DNA of 6,883 nucleotides from a virus (taxonomy: Duplodnaviria; Heunggongvirae; Uroviricota; Caudoviricetes): the IMG/VR virus record IMGVR_UViG_2713896907_000005, positions 1-6,883 of that record. One strand, given 5' to 3'. The translations under genes were made by a program, and so were the position numbers. The notes under the pieces are model-generated. The model searched no databases. It saw only the letters and a list, made by a program, of their open reading frames with translations, and was not told the origin of the DNA. This document shows, one piece after another, positions 1 through 230 of the stretch (the stretch's first letter is position 1; every line of letters starts with the position of its first letter).

Positions 1-230
1 CACGGCCTGATATTGCTGTACGGTGGGTTATTCCAGATTGCACCGTGGCTTACCCACTCAGAATTGAGCGCGTCGTCGGCCTCTGTTAGCCAGTGAGCAC
101 ACAGAGCGTTTTTGTCGCTCGCCGCCGAATCCAGCCAGAATCCAAACTCAATATCCAGTGCATCAAAAAGCCAGAGCGGCGTTTGCCAGCAGTCCTTGTC
201 GTGTGCTGGCGTATTTGATTTGATAGTCAT
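1..230 (-). CDS. Phage DNA N6-adenine methyltransferase (Dam/D12-class), 5' portion only; gene continues beyond window start
   Basis: ATG at 230-228 overlaps the ninB stop (ATGA). The frame stays open for 76 codons to the window edge. Hand translation MTIKSNTPAHDKDCWQTPLWLFDALDIEFGFWLDSAASDKNALCAHWLTEADDALNSEWVSHGAIWNNPPYSNIRP contains the NPPY motif typical of N6-adenine methyltransferases. Not in the ORF track because it has no stop inside the window. Confidence 0.75.
   Translation of the reverse strand, partial: MTIKSNTPAHDKDCWQTPLWLFDALDIEFGFWLDSAASDKNALCAHWLTEADDALNSEWVSHGAIWNNPPYSNIRP

Follow-up and report, generated by a model that had tools for sequence, protein, structure and literature searches.

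The closest described relative of the gene considered here is taken to be M.EcoVT2Dam, the VT-2 dam methyltransferase, which was cloned in 2001 by Radlinska and Bujnicki (PMID 11720311) and is cited in a later paper as 'known to target 5'-GATC-3'' (PMC6602927); the enzyme is also listed in another paper (PMC7556043). A far more distant relative, M.Phi93DAM of lactococcal 936-type phages, methylates GATC and protects DNA from DpnII, as determined by single-molecule real-time (SMRT) sequencing and by digestion with DpnI and DpnII (PMC4190342). What phage Dam enzymes do is still poorly understood, and it has not been established how a GATC methylase benefits a phage whose host already possesses Dam (PMC7556043). 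Here we analyse a stretch of 6,883 nucleotides (nt) from a Caudoviricetes record (IMGVR_UViG_2713896907_000005, positions 1 to 6,883; hereafter the window), at the left edge of which an open reading frame (ORF) is cut off by the end of the sequence. The initial annotation described this ORF as a Dam-like N6-adenine methyltransferase of the nin region carrying the NPPY motif; the translation and the PF05869 and TIGR01712 profiles bear this out and place the gene on the minus strand, which had not been stated. We estimate the probability to be roughly 0.88 that window 1..230 comprises the first 76 of the 175 codons of a lambda-like prophage dam gene, that this gene is the ortholog of M.EcoVT2Dam, and that its product is a GATC methylase of lytic growth.

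The features on which this reading depends are the following, all on the minus strand.

1..230, minus strand: 5' part of dam, codons 1-76 of 175, a PF05869 / TIGR01712 N6-adenine DNA methyltransferase (translation, profiles, PHROG match and contig identity).
18..29, minus strand: residues 68-71, NPPY, catalytic motif IV of N6-adenine methyltransferases (translation; invariant in both alignments; follows model strand 64-67).
117..134, minus strand: residues 33-38, L-D-S-A-A-S, presumed degenerate motif I for binding of S-adenosylmethionine (SAM), with D34 ending the first strand (both alignments; role putative).
177..188, minus strand: residues 15-18, W-Q-T-P, probable motif X-like element where the fold begins, named from the gamma-class motif order (nine-homologue alignment; precedes model helix 19-29).
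227..230, minus strand: ATGA overlap of the dam start codon ATG (230..228) with the ninB stop codon TGA (229..227) (read from the sequence).
227..673, minus strand: ninB, Orf-family recombination mediator and upstream partner of dam (PF05772, 164 bits, 1.7e-48, full length).
235..243, minus strand: AAGGGAAGG, a purine-rich, Shine-Dalgarno-like stretch in the end of ninB, 4 nt before the dam ATG (read from the sequence; putative function).

The minus-strand frame opens at the ATG at 230..228 and is free of stop codons for 76 codons up to the left window edge; the translated fragment (window 230..1, minus strand) reads MTIKSNTPAHDKDCWQTPLWLFDALDIEFGFWLDSAASDKNALCAHWLTEADDALNSEWVSHGAIWNNPPYSNIRP. 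Profile searches were made with residues 1-76 only. The Pfam search, a check suggested in the initial annotation, returned PF05869 (Dam) at 93.9 bits (E 1.2e-26; curated cut-off 28.1). With the NCBIfam equivalog TIGR01712 (phage N-6-adenine-methyltransferase) the fragment scored 124.5 bits, above the cut-off of 97.05, over profile positions 1-74 of 165. The family match is thus far above chance, though less than half of the protein is present. The fragment also matches PHROG 111, 'DNA methyltransferase', at 9e-40, and its best PADLOC matches are 'orphan methyltransferase' models. Two plus-strand ORFs that cross this region (93..218 and 112..321) were rejected as opposite-strand coding artefacts, as they lack family support and the minus frame is the conserved one, and an Rfam scan of the whole window gave no match at gathering thresholds.

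Conservation was assessed in two alignments, one of nine family members down to 29% identity and one of 42 enterobacterial homologues. D34 and NPPY are invariant in both, and W15, T17 and P18 are invariant across the nine. The complete set of invariant positions in the nine-member alignment is W15, T17, P18, D34, L55, N68-P-P-Y71, L95, P97, G121, R122, F125 and S141. Five invariant elements lie inside the window, and the family-invariant W15, T17, P18, D34 and L55 are all present in its 76 residues.

The remainder of the gene was read from other sequences. Eight loci were found on contigs that encode exactly the NinB of the window; the dam fragment is identical in all of them (230/230 nt), and each of the eight continues into an intact dam gene of 175 codons (528 nt), followed by ninE and usually by ninF and ninG. 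One of these contigs, L005 (GCA_047445555.1, JASWDV010000001.1), is identical to window 1..4673 at 4673 of 4673 nt and in all likelihood represents the same prophage, judging from this identity; its dam is intact, encoding 175 amino acids (aa), with ninE and ninF downstream. An early stop codon or frameshift beyond the window edge, a concern raised in the initial annotation, is very unlikely, as the contig with 4673/4673 identity carries the intact 175-aa gene, and none occurs in the seven other contigs with an identical 5' end either.

These comparisons bear on the possibility that dam no longer functions in this prophage, as a remnant either cut short beyond the window edge or silent. Truncated and chimeric Dam ORFs are indeed numerous in databases (proteins of the P0030 type, and fusions with NinE, CII and RusA), and the prophage Dam M.EcoMIV of E. 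coli EC958 was reported to be transcriptionally inactive in the lysogen (PMC4659465). The gene in the identical contig is nevertheless an intact 528-nt frame, every invariant family residue that falls in the window is present, and the substitutions that separate it from its relatives are strongly biased towards synonymous ones: 9 synonymous codon changes and 1 non-synonymous change with respect to the VT2-Sakai dam, and 15 and 3, respectively, with respect to the dam of the E2348/69 prophage. This is the pattern expected under purifying selection, and silence in a lysogen is what cI control would produce and is no sign of decay. We therefore regard a non-functional remnant as very unlikely. 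A further codon comparison, with a Klebsiella phage gene, was set aside, as the genes are non-collinear.

Among described systems, the one closest to the full-length Dam is orf32 (NP_050531) of the Shiga toxin 2 (Stx2) phage VT2-Sakai. The L005 protein is identical to it at 174 of 175 residues, with the conservative substitution R107K, outside the window, as the only difference, so that the 76 residues encoded in the window are the same in both. We equate VT2-Sakai orf32 with the CHARACTERISED enzyme M.EcoVT2Dam and take the L005 Dam to be its ortholog. VT2-Sakai also has the same ninB-dam-ninE order and the same ATGA junction as the window; the upstream neighbour of ninB differs, being a 108-aa ORF here and a Lar-like gene in VT2-Sakai. 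Identical or near-identical dam genes are present in Phi24B, Min27, 933W-type phages, HK97 and mEp phages.

The gene is widespread. A megablast search with window 1..700 returned 254 phage records, mostly of Stx-converting phages, annotated as NinB and DNA methyltransferase, and the 230 nt of dam are found with at least 90% identity in 1554 of 5426 complete E. coli genomes (~29%), always annotated 'phage N-6-adenine-methyltransferase | recombination protein NinB'. At the protein level, tblastn against 50,697 phage records detected Dam homologues in 2129, with hosts that include Escherichia, Klebsiella, Vibrio, Salmonella, Staphylococcus, Lactococcus, Gordonia and others; the homologues in T1-like phages share 32-35% identity. 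Coliphage T1 and Haemophilus phage HP1 each have a Dam that presumably belongs to PF05869 / TIGR01712 as well. Other members of this family are likewise small single-domain proteins (roughly 140-240 aa) that keep the invariant W..TP, D, NPPY and GR..F, but they share only 30-43% identity with the protein described here and occur in other genomic contexts. One of them, gene 10W24_002 of a lactococcal 936-type phage, is 34% identical, lies between terminase genes and has an N-terminus closely matching that of M.Phi93DAM, as judged by the published cloning primer. GATC specificity appears to hold across the family, because M.Phi93DAM methylates GATC while being only ~34% identical.

Some homologues show unusual arrangements. 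The Klebsiella phage ST16-OXA48phi5.2 (L012 1483..2777) encodes a 62%-identical Dam outside the nin region, directly after exo/bet, and a 'dcm methylase' gene overlaps its dam on the downstream side, giving two methylases in tandem. Chimeric or truncated Dam proteins are also found in databases (P0030, P0054, P0057, P0063 and P0075); P0030, of 122 aa, consists of the first ~60 Dam residues joined to DUF1382 and is encoded on 93 contigs, and other fusions involve NinE, CII or RusA. Their sequences suggest that prophage dam genes often carry recombination joints or frameshifts, either internally or at their ends. Since searches with the 76-aa fragment as query returned only partial or chimeric homologues, a full-length query was used to collect the sequences for modelling.

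An AlphaFold2 model was obtained for the full-length homologue P0055, whose first 76 residues are those of the window, from 42 homologues (predicted local distance difference test score 79.2, predicted template modelling score 0.81). It shows one alpha/beta domain with the seven-stranded class I (Rossmann-fold) methyltransferase fold; NPPY is in the loop after strand 4 (residues 64-67), and no separate target-recognition domain is seen. The protein is thus predicted to be a class I SAM-dependent methyltransferase that is structurally nearest to the gamma-class N6-adenine enzymes, and we assign its motif order, W..TP (X), D34 (I) and NPPY (IV), to the gamma class. The gamma-class enzymes M.TaqI and M.BseCI and the catalytic domain of PCIF1/CAPAM are only 15-18% identical to Dam and possess large additional target-recognition domains, for a total of 382-544 residues, which the 175-aa Dam lacks. 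A solved structure of the family was not found by phmmer or by the nine-member profile against all chains of the PDB, those of E. coli Dam, T4 Dam and DpnM among them; matches to SdiA and to Med31, the latter with a fortuitous WCNPPYS, were discarded as chance.

The term 'Dam-like' therefore describes function and name only, and on present sequence comparisons not homology to E. coli Dam. E. coli Dam, T4 Dam and DpnM belong to the alpha class (PF02086, MethyltransfD12) and have no detectable sequence homology to the phage Dam; they differ in motif order and have an inserted DNA-recognition domain which the phage enzyme is without. The Pfam scan of the fragment matched PF05869 only, and PF02086 was not matched. 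GATC specificity shared with the alpha-class Dam enzymes would be convergent. The adenine methylase of Stx prophages that acts on 16S rRNA (M.EcoGV / M.EcoPA8orf6770P) was considered and rejected as a counterpart. It is a different gene, of the MT-A70 family and near the integrase end beside the PNB-2 gene, as opposed to PF05869 in the nin region, and the Pfam scan found no MT-A70 match in the dam fragment. In phage PA8 the M.EcoGV-like MT-A70 protein, gp5, is encoded ~3 kilobases into the phage, near its left end, with gp6 as its partner (PMC10810198).

It is conceivable, even so, that a methyltransferase of this family acts on something other than plain double-stranded GATC DNA, with relaxed adenine specificity, on single-stranded DNA or recombination intermediates together with NinB, or on RNA with a partner. 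Such an enzyme may do more than duplicate host Dam, working with NinB on single-stranded or recombining DNA, or blunting host defences or mismatch repair through its relaxed specificity. The lack of a target-recognition domain in 175 aa, compared with ~380-540 aa in the nearest solved gamma-class enzymes, the lack of a solved structure for the family in the searches above, and the overlap of dam with both ninB and ninE would fit this idea, and there are precedents in another Stx-phage 'DNA adenine methylase' that turned out to be a two-subunit 16S rRNA methylase (PMC10810198) and in a Serratia prophage adenine methylase with extremely relaxed specificity (PMC7556043). The rRNA methylase, however, belongs to another family (MT-A70) and is located at another position in the phage genome. 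GATC methylation is reported for an enzyme that differs at 1 of 175 residues, and a member of only ~34% identity has been shown to methylate GATC by SMRT sequencing as well as by digestion with DpnI and DpnII. We consider an altered substrate very unlikely, and we likewise give low odds to a role beyond that of host Dam.

The position of dam in the nin region is the second line of comparison with described phages. Direct reading of the sequence confirms that the start of dam overlaps the stop of ninB by ATGA, as had been noted in the initial annotation, and translational coupling from ninB to dam is probable given this overlap. The GGCTGC-ATGA junction is common to ninB/dam in the window and in VT2-Sakai and to the ninB/ninC boundary of lambda. 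In L005, dam and ninE meet at GGCGGC-ATGA, so that dam overlaps both of its neighbours, ninB and ninE. The nin genes thus form a chain of overlapping genes that are presumably translationally coupled. It was also correctly noted that lambda has ninC at this position: in lambda, ninC and then ninD follow ninB via the same GGCTGC-ATGA junction. NinC (PAPS-reductase-like) and NinD occupy the slot held by dam here but are unrelated to Dam, with no homology between the proteins. The exchange of dam for ninC is ordinary lambdoid mosaicism, that is, a module swap, and the conserved short junctions may have served as crossover points for the exchange of nin-region modules.

The features surrounding ninB and dam that are relevant to their exchange and expression are given below.

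227..236 of the window, minus strand: short ATGA junction, with counterparts at L010 2576..2585 and L005 4962..4971.
696..1022, minus strand: orf108, 108 aa, first gene of a conserved orf108-ninB-dam module (PHROG 5903, unknown function, 3e-73).
1036..1069, minus strand: tR2-like intrinsic terminator, AGGCCTGC-loop-GCAGGCCT followed by a T tract, between ren and orf108-ninB-dam (terminator scan: stem of 8 bp, 6 of them GC, and T-rich tail).

As a whole, the window carries immunity, replication and nin genes of the lambda type, inverted with respect to the conventional lambda map: cI (3748..4461) and N are on the plus strand, and cro, cII, O, P, ren and ninB are on the minus strand, according to the ORF list and Pfam. 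The hairpin at 1036..1069, directly identified upstream of orf108-ninB-dam, is what we take to be the counterpart of lambda tR2; if so, transcription of dam would come from pR alone and would require antitermination by N. Window 1..1500 gave no promoter-like site.

The dam gene of Phi24B, whose product is 100% identical to NP_050531, is informative with respect to timing. This gene (CM2) is one of four CMAT-identified genes with an expression pattern linked to the lytic cycle (PMC3342100), and transcription of the prophage Dam homologue M.EcoMIV is low in the E. coli EC958 lysogen (PMC4659465). From its position downstream of a tR2-like terminator, and by analogy with the lytic expression of the identical gene in Phi24B, we assign dam as a delayed-early lytic gene and not as an epigenetic regulator of the lysogen. 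The initial annotation had named epigenetic regulation as one of the common functions of such enzymes and had proposed methylation calling on lysogen DNA. For these same reasons the former is not favoured, and the latter would be uninformative in a dam+ lysogen because host Dam already methylates ~99.9% of GATC sites in dam+ E. coli (PMC6602927).

A role in the lysogen, in which the phage Dam would supplement host Dam as an epigenetic regulator or stabiliser of lysogeny, has also been suggested for Phi24B. It would agree with the requirement of host Dam for stable 933W lysogeny (Murphy et al. 2008, as cited in PMC3342100) and with the detection of Phi24B Dam protein in lysogen cultures by CMAT (PMC3342100). 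The same Phi24B study nevertheless places CM2 among the genes with a lytic pattern, and the Dam signal in lysogen cultures would therefore come from spontaneously induced cells. With dam in the pR operon behind a terminator, no promoter-like site in 1..1500, and nearly all GATC sites (~99.9%) of dam+ lysogens methylated in any case (PMC6602927), we find this role extremely unlikely.

The description of the enzyme as an orphan methyltransferase holds, with only ninB upstream and ninE, ninF and ninG downstream; no adjacent restriction endonuclease gene is present in L005, in the other contigs, in the E2348/69 prophage or in VT2-Sakai. In the window, GATC occurs 17 times, compared with ~26 expected from base composition, and 8 of these sites are in the O-P genes (1427..2997).

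The orf108 gene gave no Pfam, NCBIfam or PADLOC match. Its product has a hydrophobic N-terminal helix, and the gene sits between the tR2-like terminator and ninB. It accompanies ninB-dam in 8 of 8 contigs encoding the NinB of the window, and the sequence shared by these contigs starts just upstream of orf108 regardless of the replication module (P/ren or a DnaB-type helicase).

Elsewhere in the window, two overlapping plus-strand ORFs (4548..6052) lie between cI and N, in the slot of lambda rexA/rexB.

4548..5126, plus strand: ORF of 192 aa (Pfam DUF6932, 2e-26; PADLOC candidate-defence PDC-M63A, 2.2e-10; PHROG 9194).
5123..6052, plus strand: ORF of 309 aa, function unknown (PHROG 18731; no Pfam or PADLOC match).

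These two ORFs may be an uncharacterised, prophage-encoded defence pair.

Several points weigh against the reading of dam as a lytic GATC methylase orthologous to M.EcoVT2Dam. The window covers only 43% of dam, the remainder being read from the identical contig. The correspondence between orf32 and the REBASE name M.EcoVT2Dam is our own mapping, and GATC specificity, taken from the literature, goes back to the 2001 paper as cited in two later ones (PMC6602927, PMC7556043). In the structural model the presumed SAM loop (residues 35-47) is of low confidence, and Foldseek against the PDB gave only weak matches (best E 2.9e-3). The activity also looks redundant in E. coli, a host with a Dam of its own. 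Finally, the MT-A70 'DNA adenine methylase' of an Stx phage prefers 16S rRNA when bound to its partner, a warning against reliance on annotation alone (PMC10810198). Each of the three alternatives discussed above is less well supported than a GATC methylase of lytic growth.

If dam is such a lytic methylase, the following course of events would be expected. Transcription from pR would proceed rightward and, with N, read through the tR2-like terminator, so that dam is expressed; ribosomes would be passed from ninB to dam via the ATGA overlap. The product, a small single-domain SAM-dependent enzyme, would transfer a methyl group to N6 of adenine in GATC, with NPPY (68-71) holding the flipped-out adenine and with W-x-T-P and L-D-x-A-A-S as the putative cofactor site. 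During lytic growth, when host Dam would be limiting, the phage Dam could keep the fast-replicating phage DNA, and also host DNA, methylated at GATC. Methylated progeny DNA would resist restriction by enzymes of the DpnII/MboI type, which cut unmethylated GATC, in the next host, in line with the protection from DpnII reported for a distant family member, and this DNA would spend less time in the hemimethylated form that MutH and SeqA recognise.

The gene itself is routinely annotated, and the cloning and characterisation of its near-identical counterpart date from 2001, so that it carries little weight as a discovery. Keeping lytic phage DNA fully methylated is most likely the role of this Dam, the benefit to the phage being deduced from that role.
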